From an uncultured Enterobacteriaceae bacterium (GTDB taxonomy: Bacteria > Desulfobacterota > Binatia > Bin18): DNA of 64,000 bases. The position numbers and the translations under genes are program-made. The DNA is taken from NCBI GenBank assembly GCA_964495015.1, contig CAZBUD010000016.1:3491-67490 (forward strand), read 5' to 3'. Below the pieces are notes generated by a model that saw nothing but the letters and a program-made list of their open reading frames with translations, made no database searches and had not been told where the DNA came from. Shown here in pieces: positions 10,356-55,142 of the stretch. Each line of letters starts with the position of its first letter. The stretch's first letter is position 1.

Positions 10356-10847
10356 ATGCCGATTTATGAGACCCTATATATCCTTCACCCGGAACTGTCC
10401 GCAGCTCGGGTGAAGGAAGTTGTCGAAGGAATGCAAAAGACCCTCGAAGAGAGTCAGGCAAAAATGTTATGGGTTGAAGAGTGGGGGTTGCGCAACTTAG
10501 CCTATGACATTCAGAAACAAAAACGCGGATATTATGTGCGCTTCGAATACGATTCTCCTCCTCAGGCCGTCAGAGCCTTGGAACGGGTCTTGCGCTTAAG
10601 CGAAGACGCCATGCGGTTCTTATCCGTTGCGCGCTCTGCACCGTCGGAGGGGCAAGATCCGAAATCTCAGTCACCTAAACCTGCTGAGCCAGCCGCAGCG
10701 GTCGTTCCTAGGTCAGCAGAGAGTGATGCGCCGCAGTCCACTGCCCCAGAAGAAGGGACAGGTGATGCACCCCAAGCTACTACTCCAGAGGGCGAGGCGA
10801 GTGAGCCCCCTTCAGAGGCTTCAGAGGAAAATACAGAAGGACAATGA
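10356..10847 (+). CDS. rpsF: 30S ribosomal protein S6 (with acidic C-terminal extension)
   Basis: MPIYETLYILHPEL ... EEWGLRNLAYDI ... is the S6 fold. RBS GGAGGAG upstream. Ends at TGA. Confidence 0.9.
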   Translation: MPIYETLYILHPELSAARVKEVVEGMQKTLEESQAKMLWVEEWGLRNLAYDIQKQKRGYYVRFEYDSPPQAVRALERVLRLSEDAMRFLSVARSAPSEGQDPKSQSPKPAEPAAAVVPRSAESDAPQSTAPEEGTGDAPQATTPEGEASEPPSEASEENTEGQ

Positions 10848-10863
10848 GACGTGAGTCTTTTGT

Positions 10864-11145
10864 GTGAGGAAAGGATACAATAAGGTCATATTTGCGGGCC
10901 GATTCCATCGGAGTCCGGAATTAACGTTCTCCTTTTTAGTACCGAAGAGTAAAGAGAAAGAAGACGATCTTTTTGTTGACGTTGTGGCTTTTCGGACACT
11001 CGCAGAAGAATATTGTCCAGTATTGATAAATGGGAAAGCCGTTCTTGTGGAAGGAACGTTGGCTCCTTGTCGGTGGAATAAGGTAGAAGGCGTGATACGC
11101 GATCCCTACGAAGTGCGAGTTTCTCTGATTCGGATTATCGAGTGA
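10864..11145 (+). CDS. Short single-stranded-DNA-binding (SSB/PriB-like) OB-fold protein
   Basis: 93 aa, GTG start. YNKVIFAGRF.RSPELTF ... VDVVAFRTLAE ... VLVEGTLAPCRWNKVEGVIRDPYEVRV matches the SSB N-terminal OB-fold pattern. It sits at the canonical rpsF-ssb/priB-rpsR position. Shorter than a typical SSB and lacks a C-terminal tail. Confidence 0.5.
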   Translation: MRKGYNKVIFAGRFHRSPELTFSFLVPKSKEKEDDLFVDVVAFRTLAEEYCPVLINGKAVLVEGTLAPCRWNKVEGVIRDPYEVRVSLIRIIE

Positions 11146-11199
11146 CGAATAAAGCCAATAGAAAAAGATGAACACTGCTGAGCAGTAAAGGGAGTAATT

Positions 11200-11478
11200 A
11201 TGCAAGGACCGCCCAGAGGTAAATTTAACCGGCGCGGCGGGGATGATAGATATCCCCGTCGGCGTATGCGCCGGAAAGTCTGTCGTTTTTGTGTGGATAA
11301 GAAAGATTCCATCGACTTTAAAGAAACTTCTCTACTCGGAGATTTTATTACCGAGCGAGGGAAAATTATCCCGAGCCGTATTACGGGGACGTGTTTTTGG
11401 CATCAAAGGAAACTCACCCTTGCAATTAAACAAGCACGCGCGATTGCGTTGCTGCCCTACGCTGCCGATCAGGTGTGA
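11200..11478 (+). CDS. rpsR: 30S ribosomal protein S18
   Basis: CRFC ... [28 protein letters not shown] ... [12 protein letters not shown] are S18 hallmarks. Confidence 0.9.
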
Positions 11479-11558
11479 TCGAATCCTCTCTGAGCCTATG
11501 TGCACTGTGTAGTATTTAGTTGTGTTTTTACGGACGCTCGCGTAAGGTAAGGACCGGT

Positions 11559-12011
11559 ATGGAGATTATTTTACAAGAAGAGGTGGTGAGTCTCGGGCAG
11601 ATCGGAGATCTGGTCAAGGTGAAGAATGGCTATGCACGGAATTATCTGCTTCCCCGTGGTTTGGCTGTTGTGGCGAACAGACGTAATATTCGTGTCCTGG
11701 ATCATCAAAAGCGTCTTGCTACGGAGAAAAAGGAACGTGTACAAAAGCAGGCAAATGTTTTAACGGCACGGCTTTCGGGTCTCACGATCGCTATTCCTGC
11801 TCGTGCTGGTGAGGGAGAGAAGCTGTTTGGTTCTGTTACGAATATCGATATTGAGAAAGCGCTCACGGCGCAAGGCGTGAGCGTAGATCGTCGGAGAATT
11901 ATCCTTGTTGAGCCCATTAAACAGCTCGGGACCTATGAGGTTCCAGTGCGTTTAAGTGGGGGAGTCCAGGCGAAAGTGACTGTTCAAGTCACGCCGGAAG
12001 ACGCGGCCTGA
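11559..12011 (+). CDS. rplI: 50S ribosomal protein L9
   Basis: Internal ATG at 11559 with SD AAGGTAAGGA upstream. MEIILQEEVVSLGQIGDLVKVKNGYARNYLLPRGLAV is the L9 N-domain. Confidence 0.85.
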   Translation: MEIILQEEVVSLGQIGDLVKVKNGYARNYLLPRGLAVVANRRNIRVLDHQKRLATEKKERVQKQANVLTARLSGLTIAIPARAGEGEKLFGSVTNIDIEKALTAQGVSVDRRRIILVEPIKQLGTYEVPVRLSGGVQAKVTVQVTPEDAA

Positions 12012-43582: not shown

Positions 43583-45301
43583 CTACATTGCCTCCAGTGT
43601 CTCTATCCCCAGTAGCTCCAGCCCGGTTTTCAAATACTGGGCGGTCAGACTACACAGCAACAGCCGCGTGGGCCGACGATCCTCCAGGGCCTTCAGAACC
43701 GGATGGGCTTGGTAGAAAAGATTAAACTGGGTGGCGAGTTCGTACAAAAAATTTGCCAGCAAATTAGGTTTATACGAGCGTTCGACTTCGAGCAGCACGT
43801 CGCCAAAGCGGAGCATGTATTTGGCCAGGTTTCGTTCTTCGGGTGCAAGCAGTTGGACCAGCATGTCTGGCGGGGGCTGCCAGTCGGTCAGACCGCCTTT
43901 GCGAAAGATCGAACGAATACGGGCATACGCGTATTGCAAATACGGGGCCGTATTGCCATCCAAGGCGAGCAGCTTATCCCAACTAAAGCGATAGTCCATA
44001 GTGCGGTTCTGCATCAGATCCGCATATTTGACCGCACCGATAGCAACGATTCTCGCTATATGTTTCTGCTTTTCTTGTGACAGACCAGGGTTCTTATCTC
44101 GGACCACAGCCAGCGCCCGTTCTTCCGCCTCGTCCAGCAGAGCGGTGAGCTTTATCGGTTCTCCCTCGCGGGTTTTAATCGGCTTGCCATCTTCTCCGAG
44201 GATCGTACCGAAGCAGATATGTTCCAGGTCCATGTCATATCCCCAGATTCGCGCGACGGCAAAAAGCTGACGAAAATGGAGCTGTTGGCGGCTGTCGGTG
44301 ACATACACAATACGATCCGGCTGGAAGGTAGTCGCACGATATTTGATCGTGGCCAGATCCGTGGTGGCATACAGAAATGCGCCGTCCTGTTTCTGGATCA
44401 GGAATGGCGTGTCGGCGAGATCTGAGTCGTTATCATAAAAGACGCAGATTGCGCCTTCGCTGGGTCGAGCGATGCCTTTGTCTTGAAGTTCCCGAACCAC
44501 ATCCGCGAGCATGGGGTTATAGAAGCTTTCTCCCAGCCAGTGATCGAAGGTGACGTCAAGGCGGTCATAGATGCGCTCGAACGCCTGACGCGAGACCCGC
44601 ATATATTCATTCCACAAGGCCGTATTGTCTGCATCCCCTTGCTGCAGCTTGGCCAGCTCTGCGCGAGCACTGTCCGCAAGCGTTGTGTCGGTCTTGGTTT
44701 TGTCCTGGACCTCTTTATACATCCGTTCCATTTCAGCCAGGGGGTCGCGTTCGTACGCAGCTTGGTCGAGAAACGAACGATACCCGACCACCAACATCCC
44801 AAACTGGGTGCCCCAATCACCCAGGTGATTGTCCGTCGTCACGCTATGGCCCAGGAAGCGAAGAATACGGGTAAGCGTATCGCCCAGGATCGTTGAACGG
44901 ATATGGCCGACATGCATGGATTTCGCGACATTCGGGGCACTAAAGTCCACGACTATGGTATCTGGAGCAGCAGCGGGTTCCACGCCGAGGCGTTCGTCCT
45001 GCGCGGCAGAGAGAATGGTTCGCCCAAGCCAGTGGGGATCAAGGTGAAAATTGATAAAGCCGGGACCGGCAATGTCCCAGGTCGCAGGAATATCGTCCGG
45101 CTTCAGCTCGGCAATCACGGCTTCGGCTAGTTTGCGCGGATTCTGCTTCTGCGCTTTAGCAACAGCCATGACGCCGTTTGCTTGATAATCGCCGAATTTT
45201 GGATTGGTCGCCGGGGTGACGATGGCTGCCGCTGCTGTGCCGCTGACTGCAGCGATAGCCTGAGCGGTCTTTTCCTCTAAGAGCTGTTGTATCGTTGGCA
45301 T
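43583..45301 (-). CDS. argS: Arginyl-tRNA synthetase
   Basis: Internal ATG (MPTIQQLLEE...). HIGH-like motif SAPNVAKSMHVGHIRS. The C-terminal DALR anticodon-binding domain ends ...LGIETLEAM. The longer ORF adds 59 implausible residues. Confidence 0.85.
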   Translation of the reverse strand: MPTIQQLLEEKTAQAIAAVSGTAAAAIVTPATNPKFGDYQANGVMAVAKAQKQNPRKLAEAVIAELKPDDIPATWDIAGPGFINFHLDPHWLGRTILSAAQDERLGVEPAAAPDTIVVDFSAPNVAKSMHVGHIRSTILGDTLTRILRFLGHSVTTDNHLGDWGTQFGMLVVGYRSFLDQAAYERDPLAEMERMYKEVQDKTKTDTTLADSARAELAKLQQGDADNTALWNEYMRVSRQAFERIYDRLDVTFDHWLGESFYNPMLADVVRELQDKGIARPSEGAICVFYDNDSDLADTPFLIQKQDGAFLYATTDLATIKYRATTFQPDRIVYVTDSRQQLHFRQLFAVARIWGYDMDLEHICFGTILGEDGKPIKTREGEPIKLTALLDEAEERALAVVRDKNPGLSQEKQKHIARIVAIGAVKYADLMQNRTMDYRFSWDKLLALDGNTAPYLQYAYARIRSIFRKGGLTDWQPPPDMLVQLLAPEERNLAKYMLRFGDVLLEVERSYKPNLLANFLYELATQFNLFYQAHPVLKALEDRRPTRLLLCSLTAQYLKTGLELLGIETLEAM

Positions 45302-45523
45302 ACGGGAAAGTCTTTTGTTATACGTTGCGCTTCCAAATATTTTTTGCAGTGTAGCTGCTGATTTGTAGCAAAGGCTCTTCCTTATCGGCAAGGGTGGGCG
45401 TACATTTGCGCCAGTTATCACTTTGTGCCATGATTTTTTACAATAACTTGCTCCGTGAGAATACAAAGTGGTTTGCACGAACGTAGTAAGGACGTGAGCT
45501 AAAAGAGCTGGGACAGAAGAGCC

Positions 45524-46663
45524 ATGGAAAGCCCATCAGTGAACCGCGATAGCCAGACACAATCGACCTACTGGATCGCACTCCACCTGGTACATGGTGT
45601 TGGAAATGTTACGTATCGTCAATTGCTGAAGAATTTTACCTCACCGCAGGCGGCCTTGAATCCTTCCACCGCTGCGCTGATAGAAACTTGTGTCCGCTCA
45701 CGTGTTGCGCAAAATATTACTGCATTTGATCAATGAGCGGACTTTGAAGCTGAAGTCCACAGGCTGGAACAGGTTGGGGCACATTTGGCCACACGAACAG
45801 ACGACGAATATCCGGTGAGGCTACGGCAGATCCATGACCCAGCCCCTCTTCTCTATGTGCAGGGGAGATTTGTTCCGGAAGATAGGGTATCAATTGCCAT
45901 TGTGGGCGCCCGGATGGCCGGTGCATATGGACGTGGTGTGGCACGCGAGCTGGCCCAGGAACTTGTTGCCCGGAGGATTAGCGTCGTGAGCGGGATGGCG
46001 CGTGGTATTGATGCCGAGGCCCACCATGCGACTCTCGAGGCCGGCGGCCGGACCATTGCTGTTTTAGGATCGGGGCTTGACGTAGTGTATCCGCGTGAGC
46101 ACATAGCGTTGGCAGAGCATATTGCTGCGAATGGAGTAGTCGTGTCGGAGTTTGCACTTGGCAGTCGACCCGAGGCCGGGAACTTTCTCTATAGGAATCG
46201 GGTCATTAGTGGCATGAGTCTCGGCACAGTTGTTGTGGAGGGAACGGAAAAGAGTGGGTCTCTGATCACGGCCCAGTGTGGGCTGGACCAGAACCGTGAG
46301 ATGTCTGCCGTCCTTGGTCCGATTACAGTAAGCCGCAGCCGTGGTCCACATCGGGTCATTAAGGATGGCGCAAAATTTGTTGAAAACATTGATGATACAC
46401 CGAGCGAAATTGTACTCGGCCCCGTGCCGGTTGGCCAGCCTGCGAAGGTCACGCCGGCCGTCCTTTTGGATCCGGACGAAGAGCTACTGTTTCGGCTGTT
46501 TGAAGAAGAGCCGCTACACGTTGATACGGTAATTACCGGAAGTCGGCTTGAGACAGCACGCGTACTTGAGGTGTCCCTTAGGCTAGAATTAAAAGGATTA
46601 GTTGCCCAACTCCCAGGAATGGATTTCGCGTCTACGAGAGGAAGCGAAGCAAGAGGAATGTAA
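45524..46663 (+). CDS. dprA: DNA-processing protein DprA (Smf), one reading frame interrupted by an in-frame TGA at 45734-45736
   Basis: ORF 45524-45736 (YWIALHLVHGVGNVTYRQLLKNFTSPQAAL, the DprA N-terminal SAM/HhH domain) and ORF 45785-46663 (DEYPVRLRQIHDPAPLLYVQG ... Rossmann-like DprA core ... C-terminal winged helix) are in the same frame. The intervening read ...AFDQ*ADFEAEVHRLEQVGAHLATRT aligns to E. coli Smf ...SLCWLEQPNHHL. Conserved dprA-topA adjacency, 2 nt apart. Confidence 0.75.
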
Positions 46664-46665
46664 GT

Positions 46666-49002
46666 ATGGCGAAGAATCTGCTGATTGTTGAATCTCCGGC
46701 CAAAGCGCGGACGATTGGAAAATATCTAGGCCGTGGCTATCAGGTAAAAGCTTCGGTCGGGCATATTATGGATCTGCCCAAGAGTAAACTCGGCATTGAT
46801 ATTGAGAACGGCTTTACCGCCGAATATCAAGTCATCCATGGGAAGGCCAAGATTGTCGACGAACTCAAAAATGCGGCCAAAGGCAAGGAGCACATCTTTC
46901 TCGCTTCAGACCCGGACCGTGAGGGCGAAGCTATTGCCTGGCATATTGCAGAAAAACTTGGCAAGAATGGCCAAAAGATTCAACGCGTCCTGCTGAATGA
47001 AATTACGAAAAAAGCGGTTCAAGAAGCGATAAAAAATCCTGCTGAATTGAACAAAAAGCGCTACGACGCTCAGGTCGCACGCAGGGTGCTCGACCGGTTA
47101 GTCGGCTATCAGATCAGTCCGCTGTTATGGAAAAAAGTCCGCCGTGGTCTGTCGGCAGGCCGAGTACAATCCGTCGCCGTGCGCATCATTACGGAGCGTG
47201 AACGTGCCATTCGTGCCTTTGTGGCCGTGGAATACTGGTCGATTACCGCTGCGCTGGAAGGCGCACTGCCACCAGTGTTTGAAGCCAACCTCTTCAAGGT
47301 TGGTGATCAAAAGGTCGACATTAAGAAGTTCCGGATTGAAAACGGAGACGAGGTCCAGAAGATTGTTGCGGGCCTGAATGGGGCACGGTGGACGATCCAG
47401 AAGATCGAGAAAAAAGACCGCAAGAGAAATCCAGCTCCTCCCTTCATTACCTCGCGTTTGCAACAAGAAGCCTCACGCAAACTCGGTTATTCGCCGTCGC
47501 GGACCATGGGGATTGCTCAGCGTTTATACGCCGGGTTGGAGTTGGGCGATGAAGGCGCAGTTGGCTTGATCACCTATATGCGGACCGATTCGCCTCGTAC
47601 CTCACCAGAAATGACCACGGCGGCCCGTGCGCATATCGAACAGACGTACGGGCCGGAGTATGTGCCTGCGAAGCCACCCTCTTTTCGGTCCGGCAAAGCT
47701 GCGCAAGAAGCGCATGAGGCCATTCGGCCCACCTCGCTTGAAAATCCACCCAACAAAGTTGCCCCCTATCTCAAAAAGGAAGAACTGGGCCTGTATTCGC
47801 TGATCTGGAACAGGTTTATGGCCAGCCAAATGGCCCCGGCCCAATTTGAACAAACGAGCGTGGATATAGCGGCCAACGAGTGTATTTTTCGGGCAACCGG
47901 ACAGGTGCTGCGCTTTGACGGCTTCTTACGCGTCTATATGGAAGGCAGGGACGATAAGACGGAAGAAGATGACGATGCGGAGAAGCGACTGCCGGCATTG
48001 ACCGAGGGTGAACAACTGACCCTCCACAAAGTGACTCCAAATCAGCATTTCACCCAGCCCCCGCCACGCTTTACCCAAGCGACGTTAATTAAAGAACTGG
48101 AGGACAAAGGCATTGGTCGCCCGTCAACCTATGCCTCCATAATGGGCACGATCCTGAACAAGGAATACGTCGTCGAAGGCGAACAACGGCGCCTGCGTCC
48201 GACTGATTTGGGGATGCTGATCACTGACTTATTAGTTGAATCGTTTCCCGACATTCTGAACGCGGAGTTTACCGCGGGTATGGAAGCCGTGCTTGATCAG
48301 ATTGAAGAGGGCCAGGAAGACTGGCGACGCGCGATTGAACAATTCTATACACCGTTTGCTTTGGATTTGGCTAAAGCCGACAAGGAAATGCGTGATGTCA
48401 AAGGCACAGGCGAGCCAACGGATATTTCTTGTGAGGAATGTGAAGACGGCAAGATGACGATACGCTGGGGGCGTAACGGGGAGTTTCTGGCGTGTTCACA
48501 TTACCCAGAATGTAAATCCACACGCAATTTCACTCGGGACGACAAGGGGGAGATCGTGATGCAGGAAAAGGAGGAAGTCCTGACCGACGAGAAATGCGAG
48601 AAGTGTGGTCTCCCGATGCAGATACGCTACGGCCGGTATGGGAAATTCCTCGGCTGCTCGGGCTATCCGGAATGTAAAAGCGTGAAGAAGATAGGCCAAC
48701 CGGCGACCCAGTCGTTGGACATCAAATGTCCCGAGTGTGAAGAAGGAGAGATCCAACAAAAATACTCTCGCCGAGGTAAAGTCTTTTATAGCTGCGGTCG
48801 TTACCCCAAGTGCAAATACGCACTCTGGGATCGGCCCATCCCTGAACCCTGTCCAGAGTGTAAGGCTCCATTTGTATTGGAAAAGACAACCAAACGGGCT
48901 GGGACAACACGGCGGTGCGTGCGCGAGGAATGTGACTACCAAGTCAGTGTCGAGCAGGAAGGCGCTGAGCCGGCTGTCGAAGAAATGGCCCAGGCAAGCT
49001 GA
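46666..49002 (+). CDS. topA: DNA topoisomerase I
   Basis: 778 aa. Toprim N-terminus LLIVESPAKARTIGKYLG, the active-site Tyr region, and C-terminal tandem Cys4 zinc ribbons (CEECEDG ... CSHYPEC, CEKCG ... CSGYPEC, CPECEEG ... CGRYPKC). Confidence 0.9.
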   Translation: MAKNLLIVESPAKARTIGKYLGRGYQVKASVGHIMDLPKSKLGIDIENGFTAEYQVIHGKAKIVDELKNAAKGKEHIFLASDPDREGEAIAWHIAEKLGKNGQKIQRVLLNEITKKAVQEAIKNPAELNKKRYDAQVARRVLDRLVGYQISPLLWKKVRRGLSAGRVQSVAVRIITERERAIRAFVAVEYWSITAALEGALPPVFEANLFKVGDQKVDIKKFRIENGDEVQKIVAGLNGARWTIQKIEKKDRKRNPAPPFITSRLQQEASRKLGYSPSRTMGIAQRLYAGLELGDEGAVGLITYMRTDSPRTSPEMTTAARAHIEQTYGPEYVPAKPPSFRSGKAAQEAHEAIRPTSLENPPNKVAPYLKKEELGLYSLIWNRFMASQMAPAQFEQTSVDIAANECIFRATGQVLRFDGFLRVYMEGRDDKTEEDDDAEKRLPALTEGEQLTLHKVTPNQHFTQPPPRFTQATLIKELEDKGIGRPSTYASIMGTILNKEYVVEGEQRRLRPTDLGMLITDLLVESFPDILNAEFTAGMEAVLDQIEEGQEDWRRAIEQFYTPFALDLAKADKEMRDVKGTGEPTDISCEECEDGKMTIRWGRNGEFLACSHYPECKSTRNFTRDDKGEIVMQEKEEVLTDEKCEKCGLPMQIRYGRYGKFLGCSGYPECKSVKKIGQPATQSLDIKCPECEEGEIQQKYSRRGKVFYSCGRYPKCKYALWDRPIPEPCPECKAPFVLEKTTKRAGTTRRCVREECDYQVSVEQEGAEPAVEEMAQAS

Positions 49003-49125
49003 GGCAGTTGGCAAGAGCAAATACGCAAATGTATTTAAGCAATGAAAACGTCATGGCGGCCTCACGAGGTCGCCCTTTTTTGTGGTTCACTTTTAAAGCT
49101 GAGAAGGGAAGGGTATAGAACGGCT

Positions 49126-53330: not shown

Positions 53331-55142
53331 CTACGGAAGCCCCGTTTCGCTCCTCTTTTGTACCTCGGTCGGTCTCAAGGCCAAGGCATTAAGCTTCGTC
53401 CGCAAACGCTGAATCTGAGATTCTTCCGACGTGTTTTGGATTGCTTCCTGGTAGATGCGGGATGCATCAGCGATCCGTCCGGTCTTGTGGTAGGCATCGC
53501 CCAGATGTTCGATCAATGTAGGGTCTTCATCGACCAGCTCAACGGCGCGTTCGAGGTGCTGAACTGCTTGCACATATTCTCCGCGTTGGTAATAGACCCA
53601 CCCCAGGCTGTCAATGTAAAAGCCATCGTTTGGTTCAATTGCGAGCGCGCTTCGGATGAGGCTCTCAGCCTCATCAAGACGCACACCTTGTTCGGCCCAC
53701 GTATACCCGAGGTAGTTGAGTGCGGCTGCATTCTTGGGGTTGAGTGCAATCGCCTTTTGCATGTGCCGGATGCAACGGTCCTTCTCTTTCAGTTCATCGT
53801 AGACCGCTCCCAATGTGAAGTGGTACTGATCATTGTTTGGGGCAAGGCTAACAACTTTCTCAAGGATACTGATTGCTTTCGTACGATTATCATTTTCTAG
53901 GTGAAGTGAGGCGAGGAAACCCAACAAGTCCAGATCATCCTCTTTGACGCTCAGCAAGCGTTCCACCTCCGTAATCGCCAGGTCGAGCTTCTCCTGGCGT
54001 TGATAAATATAACTGAGGTAGACGCGGGAATCAGCAAAATATTCCGAGTCAGATGGAATACGCAATAACTCGACGGCCGCTTTCTCATCGTCTTTGGCTT
54101 CCGTATAAATGACGCCAAGAAAGTATCTGGCCCTGTGGTTATTTGCCTGGGAGGCCAAGATGAGGTTGAGCTGAGTAACCGCCTTTTCATTGTTCCCTTT
54201 TTCCCGGTAGATCAGGCTTATTTTGAGTCGGGTTTCTTGGGGGTCTGCCTCAATCTTCTCAAGCACAAGAAACTGATGCAGCGCGTCATCGAGCTTCTTC
54301 TGACCTAGGTAGAAGCGTCCGAGACGATTACGCACCTGTTCACTGTGGGGATTGACGGCGAGCGCTTTTTGATAGATCTCCGCGGCCTGAGCGGTCTTCT
54401 TCTGCATTTCGTACACTAACGCAAGGTCAAGCAGCACCAATTCAGACTGCGGATTGAGACTCAGTGCCTTCTGGTAATACGTTTCTGCCTGATCCAGTTG
54501 TCTGGCTGCTGCTGAAGTCTGACCGAGGTAGTAATAGCCCAAGACAGAATGCGGGTAGCGTTCAACAAGCTTTTTCAGAACCGCTGTGGCTTTTTGGAAT
54601 TCCTCCTGCTTGGCATATAAGGTACCGAGATAGAGGTAGGGCTCTTGGTTGTCAGGACTGCGTTTGAGCAGAGCCTCGTAGACCTGAGCGGCCTTTGTTT
54701 CTTTGCCGCTCGATGAGAGGAGCCCGGCAAGTAGGAGCTGGGCGTCGACGTTTTCGGGTTCACTGGCAACGACTTTTTTGCAGTGCTCTAGGGCTTCGGC
54801 CAGCTTGCCTTGACGCACGGCCAGGGTGGCGAGTCGGAGACGTAAAAACGGACTTTCCGGGTCGTTTTTTACCGCCTGTTCAAGTTCAGTCAGAGCCGTT
54901 TCGTAAACACCGTCATTGAGCGCGACCTGGCTCTTGAGAAAATGTCCCAGGGCTTTGTCTTCAGGTGACAGTACGACTGGAGTGCCCGGAATTTGCGCGG
55001 CTTGTGCTGGAGATGGCGCGACAACTGCAGGTGGTGATAGCGACAATGAAGGAGGCCGGGCTGGACGAGTGGCGGTACACGCGCCAAGAGCAGCAACAAG
55101 ACCGACTGAGACTGCCCTACCGACAGGGTTATTGGCATGCAT
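53331..55142 (-). CDS. TPR-repeat lipoprotein
   Basis: 603 aa. Lipobox LGAC, a Pro/Ala-rich linker, then more than 12 tandem TPR-like 34-residue repeats (recurring A..Y.KAL..NP motifs). Confidence 0.8.
   Translation of the reverse strand: MHANNPVGRAVSVGLVAALGACTATRPARPPSLSLSPPAVVAPSPAQAAQIPGTPVVLSPEDKALGHFLKSQVALNDGVYETALTELEQAVKNDPESPFLRLRLATLAVRQGKLAEALEHCKKVVASEPENVDAQLLLAGLLSSSGKETKAAQVYEALLKRSPDNQEPYLYLGTLYAKQEEFQKATAVLKKLVERYPHSVLGYYYLGQTSAAARQLDQAETYYQKALSLNPQSELVLLDLALVYEMQKKTAQAAEIYQKALAVNPHSEQVRNRLGRFYLGQKKLDDALHQFLVLEKIEADPQETRLKISLIYREKGNNEKAVTQLNLILASQANNHRARYFLGVIYTEAKDDEKAAVELLRIPSDSEYFADSRVYLSYIYQRQEKLDLAITEVERLLSVKEDDLDLLGFLASLHLENDNRTKAISILEKVVSLAPNNDQYHFTLGAVYDELKEKDRCIRHMQKAIALNPKNAAALNYLGYTWAEQGVRLDEAESLIRSALAIEPNDGFYIDSLGWVYYQRGEYVQAVQHLERAVELVDEDPTLIEHLGDAYHKTGRIADASRIYQEAIQNTSEESQIQRLRTKLNALALRPTEVQKRSETGLP

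Follow-up and report, generated by a model that had tools for sequence, protein, structure and literature searches.

When a stretch of 64,000 nt (hereafter the window) was analysed, dprA (smf) was found to be interrupted by a single in-frame TGA, which raises the question of what this stop codon represents: an error in the data, a codon that is recoded or read through, a boundary upstream of a shortened functional product, or the lesion of a pseudogene. The comparisons reported here point with good confidence to a fixed, moderately old dprA nonsense pseudogene in an uncultured marine bacterium related to Ca. Binatia.

Layout of the interrupted dprA locus

The locus comprises the following features (window coordinates):

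45415 to 45444, plus strand: sigma-70-like promoter match TTATCA-18-TACAAT, 5′ of dprA-topA (consensus scan)
45500 to 45513, plus strand: 14-bp insertion in the dprA leader (alignment of the window and contig L001 with L002 and L003)
45524 to 45733, plus strand: dprA codons 1–70, N-terminal SAM/HhH-like fragment (ORF and translation; Pfam DprA_N, 23.4 bits)
45734 to 45736, plus strand: in-frame TGA nonsense codon at Trp71, with G as the +4 base
45737 to 46663, plus strand: dprA codons 72–379 and TAA, Rossmann-fold domain (DNA_processg_A) and winged helix (Pfam)
46666 to 49002, plus strand: topA, intact, beginning 2 nt past the dprA stop

From the ATG at 45524 an ORF of 70 codons runs into the TGA, and from 45737 the frame is open for another 308 codons until the TAA at 46661–46663. 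Codons 1–70 exceed the Pfam cut-off for DprA_N (23.4 versus 22 bits) and align residue for residue with the intact 379-aa orthologs P0001 and P0002. In the downstream part, the Rossmann-fold domain DNA_processg_A (PF02481) was matched at 231.9 bits (6e-69; gathering cut-off 29.6), a score that identifies the gene as a DprA/Smf homolog, and the winged helix (DprA_WH) at 38.6 bits (1e-9). Sequence and Pfam matches thus bear out the preliminary description, in which the N-terminal piece and the core plus winged helix were said to share one frame and to be split only by the TGA at 45734–45736. Given the TGA at codon 71, the locus lacks the uninterrupted ORF with all domains that a functional DprA has. 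The two ssDNA-binding signature motifs of DprA, G-S/T/A-R and F/L/Y-x-x-R-N/D (Wang et al. 2014, PMC3950713), are intact in the translation, as G128-A129-R130 and F221-L222-Y223-R224-N225.

The gene context, previously described as intact, is so: argS (minus strand), dprA, topA and trmFO follow each other in synteny with contigs L003 and L004, and argS, topA and trmFO are themselves intact, with lengths equal or close to those of their orthologs. The SD of topA (AAGAGGAA) is located within the 3′ end of dprA, and topA is strongly constrained (dN/dS of 0.08 versus L003). On the other side of dprA, the leader with the sigma-70-like match is conserved with the orthologs in the alignment, and 45415 to 45444 is a tentative candidate for a sigma-70 promoter of dprA-topA. 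The 14-bp leader insertion, which ends 10 nt 5′ of the dprA ATG, is private to the window lineage.

Origin and distribution of the stop codon

Orthologs were searched over 5.8 billion protein clusters. Intact DprA orthologs are 379–382 aa in length; P0001 and P0002 are 85 and 83% identical to the window protein, and many relatives of 377–385 aa are found at 57–67%. Whether orthologs carry TGG or TGC in place of the TGA, a comparison proposed in the preliminary description, could be read directly from their DNA, which is CAATGG in L002, L003 and L004 and CAATGA in the window. In the protein alignment the stop column is W in all of the 118 full-length homologs, every one of which has AFDQW at the site. 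The colinearity that the preliminary description gave for E. coli Smf holds in equivalent form for these 118 sequences. Because the orthologs have CAATGG and W is universal at this column, the lesion is a single G>A change, TGG>TGA; the alignments show that the stop stands in place of the conserved Trp71 codon. L004, a Ca. Binatia metagenome-assembled genome (MAG) with 65% amino-acid identity, was taken as the outgroup, and a scan of genome contigs revealed no species representative of the window lineage, the nearest being a Ca. Binatia MAG.

A difference of one base at one site from the orthologs is the typical signature of a sequencing or assembly error, in which case the true codon would be TGG. 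However, five further assemblies, obtained from different runs and samples, share this TGA, their contigs having been located in ENA assemblies via exact look-ups of the 70-aa and the 249–292-aa products:

L001, ENA sample ERZ27300296: same TGA
L084, ENA sample ERZ23491077: same TGA
L085, ENA sample ERZ909416: same TGA
L086, ENA sample ERZ909419: same TGA
L087, ENA sample ERZ23486253: same TGA

With identities to the window of 99.6–99.98%, these metagenome contigs each show 1–14 other differences from it and therefore are not copies of one assembly; the sequence context of the hairpin downstream of the stop is likewise identical across all five. Moreover, dozens of further private substitutions in dprA are consistent with real decay. 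The base-call error entertained earlier is refuted by the five independent contigs, and error of either kind, in sequencing or in assembly, retains next to no probability. Among the 5.8 billion clustered proteins, none of the intact alleles exceeds 86% identity, and JGI metagenome contigs, scanned with an exact pattern covering both alleles (TGR) in the sequence context of this lineage, gave no match. From the TGA in five contigs and the lack of a close intact allele, the nonsense allele is taken to be real and, in the sampled population, fixed or nearly so. It thus is a real disabling lesion relative to the intact orthologs, as is typical of a pseudogene.

Relaxed constraint across the interrupted gene

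In a relative-rate test, amino-acid changes were assigned to the window or to L003, with L004 as the outgroup:

dprA: 37 window-specific changes, 7 L003-specific changes
argS: 18 window-specific changes, 9 L003-specific changes
topA: 9 window-specific changes, 5 L003-specific changes
trmFO: 18 window-specific changes, 15 L003-specific changes

The 37:7 asymmetry of dprA is highly significant (χ2 = 20.5; p = 6e-6) and also differs from that of argS, topA and trmFO pooled (45:29; p = 0.012; Fisher's test). Within the 118-homolog alignment, the window is off-consensus at 21 of the 160 columns with a conservation of at least 97%, while the other 118 homologs show on average 0.77 deviations at such columns (maximum 8), though they are far more diverged from one another. 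About 48 dprA replacements are private to the window lineage, and 16 of them fall on columns at least 97% conserved; the share of private replacements on conserved columns is 33%, versus 42% for random placement. Private replacements of this class include G56C, P107A, A205V, P222L, A240G, A253G and V260M, and furthermore F261S, P264L, L278V, L285F, L293P and L351S. Two of them, F261S and P264L, hit the (R/D)VFA(V/I)PG strand that is kept from Rhodopseudomonas (3MAJ) to Streptococcus (3UQZ; S. pneumoniae).

P222L was considered as a possible motif-breaking change and rejected, as it occupies the free ‘x' of the F-x-x-R-N motif. Since the position is free and H. pylori DprA presumably carries L at the matching residue, P222L alone was not counted as disabling. 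In the S. pneumoniae protein, mutants of the DprA dimer interface are H260A and L269R.

The distribution of nucleotide changes over codon positions 1:2:3 is 26:26:45 on the window branch, compared with 4:1:16 (L002) and 10:4:26 (L003) on the sister branches. Branch omegas were computed by a three-taxon decomposition with the stem branch included, which was used because the outgroup dS (>2) is saturated and synonymous changes cannot be polarised against it:

Whole dprA: window 0.33, sister pair L002-L003 0.15
Codons 1–70: window 0.62, sister pair 0.13
Codons 72–379: window 0.29, sister pair 0.16
Rossmann core (codons 131–290): window 0.22, sister pair 0.10

The Pfam scores are lowered as well, with 232 bits for the DprA domain versus 260–271 in the orthologs (~30 bits lower) and 38.6 bits for the winged helix versus 47–52. 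Within the population, three nonsynonymous and no synonymous SNPs were found in dprA, versus three and eight in the flanking genes (p = 0.055); for topA, seven SNPs are synonymous and two nonsynonymous, a count from which the differences clustered at the L086 contig end were left out. Purifying selection of the kind seen in the orthologs, as expected of a functional DprA, is not what the window shows (37:7; 21/160; 26:26:45). The comparisons instead show constraint on dprA to be relaxed before the stop and after it alike (omega of 0.62 and 0.29, respectively), a pattern that characterizes a pseudogene.

Age of the lesion and integrity of the frame

By codon-position decomposition, ~50–72 of the dprA substitutions are effectively unconstrained, corresponding to 0.04–0.06 per site or ~10 times the present population diversity (up to ~0.4%). 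Since the decay exceeds current diversity by that factor, the inactivation is not very recent. The preliminary description had spoken of a recent nonsense pseudogene; the pseudogene stands, but not its recency, given a stop shared by six assemblies and ~48 private amino-acid changes, of which 16 affect conserved columns. In simulations, as many random substitutions are expected to create 1.3–2.3 stops, with a probability of 0.33–0.62 of seeing at most one, and one is observed.

Alignment with the relatives revealed no indels in the 1,140-bp dprA frame. In the intergenic regions between the window and L003, gap events number 6 per 81 mismatches; at this ratio ~3.5–5 indels are predicted in dprA and the probability of none is ~0.005–0.03, figures that rest on six events. 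The test is weak, since the events are so few and intergenic DNA may acquire indels more readily. The absent indels are nevertheless the one observation in favour of some continued selection on the dprA frame. In addition, a branch omega below 1 (0.22 in the Rossmann core) implies that a part of the branch or of the protein was still constrained.

The downstream hairpin and the reading of the UGA

Directly after the stop lies one further feature:

45739 to 45758, plus strand: 7-bp hairpin with a 6-nt loop, GGACUUU/GAAGUCC, 2 nt after the TGA

As had been pointed out, this hairpin is real: its arms (GGACUUU at 45739–45745 and GAAGUCC at 45752–45758) form seven pairs including one U-G, with a ΔG of −8.6 kcal mol−1. 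The surrounding region of 66 nt folds no better than shuffled sequences (z = −0.04), and ~3% of the window positions have a perfect hairpin (6 bp or longer) that begins 0–15 nt downstream. The 5′ arm was made by two lineage-private substitutions (GCC>GCG and GTT>TTT), and L002, L003 and L004, which fold differently, lack the hairpin. Rfam searches, at gathering thresholds for the whole window and at E ≤ 10 for the interval 45400–46000, yielded only two tRNAs and two chance snoRNA-like matches, and no SECIS or recoding element. The hairpin was judged to be incidental on these grounds.

An in-frame UGA with a stem-loop shortly behind it looks, on the surface, like part of a bacterial selenoprotein gene, and the locus could accordingly be pictured as a case of programmed recoding, with selenocysteine inserted through the hairpin as SECIS, or with UGA reassigned to Trp or Gly. 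Several observations contradict this. Among the 118 homologs the homologous position is occupied by Trp, never by Cys or Sec, whereas Cys or Sec in relatives would be expected for a selenoprotein. In bacterial SECIS elements the apical loop lies roughly 16–37 nt downstream of the UGA; here the loop begins ~9 nt after the UGA, too near for such an element, so that a conserved SECIS at the proper distance is missing, and neither conservation of the hairpin nor any match to an Rfam family or covariance model (E ≤ 10) speaks for one. Furthermore, TGA is a usual terminator in this DNA: of 61 long window ORFs ~20 end with it, that of topA included, and the genetic code is therefore the standard one. 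An alternative code (tables 4 and 25), under which UGA would not terminate and would be frequent in frame, does not agree with this usage, and no other pair of long genes split by a single internal TGA was found in the window. Another apparent TGA-split gene, at 10852 (rpsF/SSB-fold ORF), was rejected, the upstream stretch being an alternative frame of the rpsF tail. The tRNA scan, which bears on the suppressor or tRNA-Trp features suggested in the preliminary description as worth a look, gave only tRNA-Gln(UUG) and tRNA-Val(GAC), and thus no tRNA-Sec, tRNA-Trp or suppressor tRNA within the 64-kb window. The selenocysteine and alternative-code readings are effectively refuted by the Trp column, the hairpin distance and the use of TGA as terminator, and programmed recoding as a whole is extremely improbable.

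A second possibility is basal readthrough, in which termination by RF2 at UGA-G is incomplete and a near-cognate Trp-tRNA(CCA) yields a low level of full-length DprA, making the allele a hypomorph; as an added element, the hairpin 2 nt downstream might enhance decoding of the UGA. Of the stop codons, UGA is the leakiest and most prone to readthrough; in E. coli and B. subtilis, tRNA-Trp misreads it (PMC5289835, PMC10570021), and since the ancestral residue is Trp, any such readthrough would restore it. The fully open downstream frame, with no indels against the ~3.5–5 expected, the intact ssDNA-binding motifs and the fact that both substitutions behind the 5′ hairpin arm are private to the lineage would also suit this reading. 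Against it stand the 16 private replacements at columns at least 97% conserved, F261S and P264L among them, and an N-terminal part that is equally relaxed (omega of 0.62). The +4 base is G and not the A reported to favour misreading by tRNA-Trp. Efficient global readthrough is unlikely in view of the ~20 of 61 window ORFs that end in TGA, and the hairpin, with its z of −0.04 and a chance frequency of ~3%, is no better than background. SECIS elements aside, simple downstream hairpins are not known to play a part when bacteria read through UGA.

Programmed readthrough would be marked by a stop and a stimulatory context that orthologs share and by purifying selection on the downstream part. Here, only a single lineage of ~0.4% diversity has the stop and the hairpin, and downstream constraint is relaxed. 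The site shares with the near-cognate readthrough of E. coli and B. subtilis (PMC10570021, PMC5289835) a UGA that tRNA-Trp could misread to Trp, but the latter is a general low-level property of UGA and not a feature of particular sites; unlike the favoured context (+4 A), the dprA site has +4 G, and the comparative data show no selection for readthrough. UGA readthrough, as raised in the preliminary description, therefore found no positive evidence (a stop in one lineage, relaxation on its two sides, a lineage-specific and unremarkable hairpin, no recoding RNA family), and the hypomorph with basal readthrough is considered quite unlikely.

Translation restart downstream of the stop

The downstream frame offers a putative start of its own:

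45785 to 45787, plus strand: TTG, first in-frame start-type codon after the stop, putative start of a 292-aa SAM-less product

Gene callers placed the start of the downstream part at this TTG (P0121, 292 aa), at the GTG at 45815 (P0003, 282 aa) or at the ATG at 45914 (P0122, 249 aa). Hence dprA might be split or truncated and yet functional, with reinitiation at TTG 45785 or GTG 45815 producing a DprA that has no SAM domain and still loads RecA. H. pylori DprA is naturally without the SAM domain and thus has this same architecture, and in Riemerella an RF-Zalpha construct partly complements a dprA mutant (PMC6533540), both of which lend the idea some plausibility. The 292-aa open frame begins 16 codons past the stop and is preceded, at 5 nt, by a G-rich stretch, the downstream frame contains neither indels nor further stops, and omega is lower in the Rossmann core (0.22) than in the N-terminal part (0.62).

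Yet the TTG, an ordinary Leu codon, and the G-rich stretch are already present in the intact orthologs, so that nothing start-like was gained in the window lineage. The Rossmann core and the winged helix, the very part that would have to function, hold the majority of the invariant residues that were replaced; the omega of the Rossmann core is still twice the sister value, and the Pfam domain score is down by ~30 bits. One of the three population SNPs, all of which are nonsynonymous, falls within the restart product (M260V). All candidate starts, moreover, lie downstream of residue 81, where the Pfam domain begins. A functional restart product has no positive support and is considered quite unlikely.

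A related proposal concerns the frame more than the protein: the UGA allele may be a tolerated hypomorph, or selection may keep the frame translated, whether ribosomes read through the UGA or restart at TTG 45785, and so shield topA from polarity. If true, the hypomorph or topA-polarity reading would explain a 1.1-kb frame without an indel or a second stop in the face of ~50–70 seemingly unconstrained substitutions. This proposal is given a low probability, and the nonsense pseudogene remains the preferred reading of the locus.

Probable lineage-specific loss of DprA function

The likely course of events behind the pseudogene can be outlined as follows. A G>A transition turned Trp71 (TGG) into TGA between the SAM/HhH and the Rossmann-fold domains, so that translation from the native start would end after 70 residues. 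The TGA allele would have swept or drifted to fixation in the marine Binatia-related lineage; with the function lost, missense changes would have built up gene-wide, replacing family-invariant residues. The remnant may have been retained for its position between the shared promoter and leader and the essential, tightly abutting topA, and probably persists because it is flanked by these elements, with the ribosome-binding site of topA overlapping the dprA 3′ end. DprA function thus appears to be lost, and neither DprA-dependent ssDNA protection nor RecA loading would be expected.

Among characterized proteins, Rhodopseudomonas palustris DprA (PDB 3MAJ) has the same SAM, Rossmann and winged-helix order and the same length, and residues 11–361 of the window protein align to its residues 19–372 (E = 2e-42). 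Compared with DprA of this type, the window ORF is broken at codon 71 and deviates at 21 conserved columns, including those of the VFAVPG strand. For the inactivation itself a parallel exists in Staphylococcus aureus CC5/VRSA, where a dprA truncation is lineage-wide and a possible reinitiation product is mentioned (Kos et al. 2012, PMC3372964). There, too, dprA is inactivated early in the ORF and the lesion is inherited throughout the lineage; however, the S. aureus CC5 lesion is a 1-bp duplication causing a frameshift, whereas that of the window is TGG>TGA accompanied by much more missense decay, and the organism and habitat also differ. In view of the S. aureus CC5 precedent for lineage-fixed loss of dprA, the locus is no new kind of element.

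The locus should accordingly be annotated as one dprA pseudogene and not as two genes of 70 aa and 249–292 aa, as called in the six assemblies. The data suggest that the lineage may have lost DprA-dependent natural transformation or the RecA-mediator role of DprA, which adds one more case of lineage-specific loss of a competence gene. The analysis also serves as a worked case in which comparative data alone suffice to tell a nonsense mutation that is real and fixed from sequencing errors and recoding signals.

As a minor observation, a decaying frame free of indels lies just upstream of the essential topA, a mildly interesting loose end.

Lineage rate and the dprA leader

Amino-acid changes in argS (43583-45301, minus strand) were mildly in excess in the window lineage, at 18 private changes versus 9 in L003, a sister-lineage locus with intact dprA. 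The dprA asymmetry could therefore stem in part from a generally faster window lineage; however, at 37 window-specific to 7 L003-specific changes, it far exceeds the 18:9 of argS.

Within the dprA leader, a 14-bp insertion, TAAAAGAGCTGGGA, was found at 45500-45513, with 10 nt between it and the start codon. Both the window and L001 (an independent, near-identical metagenome contig) carry it, but the intact orthologs of the two sister-lineage loci, L002 and L003, lack it. The inserted TAAAAGAGCTGGGA appears to duplicate part of the neighbouring AGAAGAGC. It may add a second lesion to this pseudogene, or it may be neutral.

Variation in topA

The topA gene differs in length among the window, L003 and L004 (the Ca. 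Binatia outgroup):

window 46666-49002: topA, 778 aa
L003 3569-5935: topA, 788 aa
L004 7152-9815: topA, 887 aa

The gap between the window and L003 corresponds to a 30-bp indel near window position 48950, in the region encoding the C-terminal zinc ribbon. The zinc-ribbon region is also where the final ~100 bp of L086, another independent metagenome contig, diverge (window-equivalent 48453-48551), with 12 clustered mismatches plus two compensating indels relative to the window, whereas the remainder of L086 is near-identical to it. This terminal cluster probably arose either through misassembly at the contig end or by exchange between the repeated zinc-ribbon modules of topA.

Start sites and other gene structures

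The mechanically called ORFs of trmFO and argS begin, respectively, 28 codons (49042-49125) and 59 codons (45302-45478) upstream of the start sites in the corresponding orthologs (MQTVTIVGGG... for trmFO, MPTIQQLLEEK... for argS), and these upstream extensions are probably untranslated. Elsewhere, two opposite-strand ORFs overlap at their 5′ ends by 227 nt:

53331-55142, minus strand: TPR-repeat ORF, 603 aa
54916-56352, plus strand: 478-aa ORF, with a cytidylyltransferase-like domain starting only at residue 212

The 478-aa ORF probably either starts further downstream than called or has an unrecognised domain at its N terminus.

TGA ends all four genes of one further cluster:

10356-12011: rpsF, 93-aa SSB-fold ORF, rpsR and rplI

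At 10864-11145, the SSB-fold ORF (29 bits to Pfam SSB) is short, has no C-terminal tail, and occupies the same position as PriB in E. coli and ssb in most bacteria. An in-frame TGA split suspected at 10852 was rejected, the upstream stretch being just the alternative frame of the rpsF tail.
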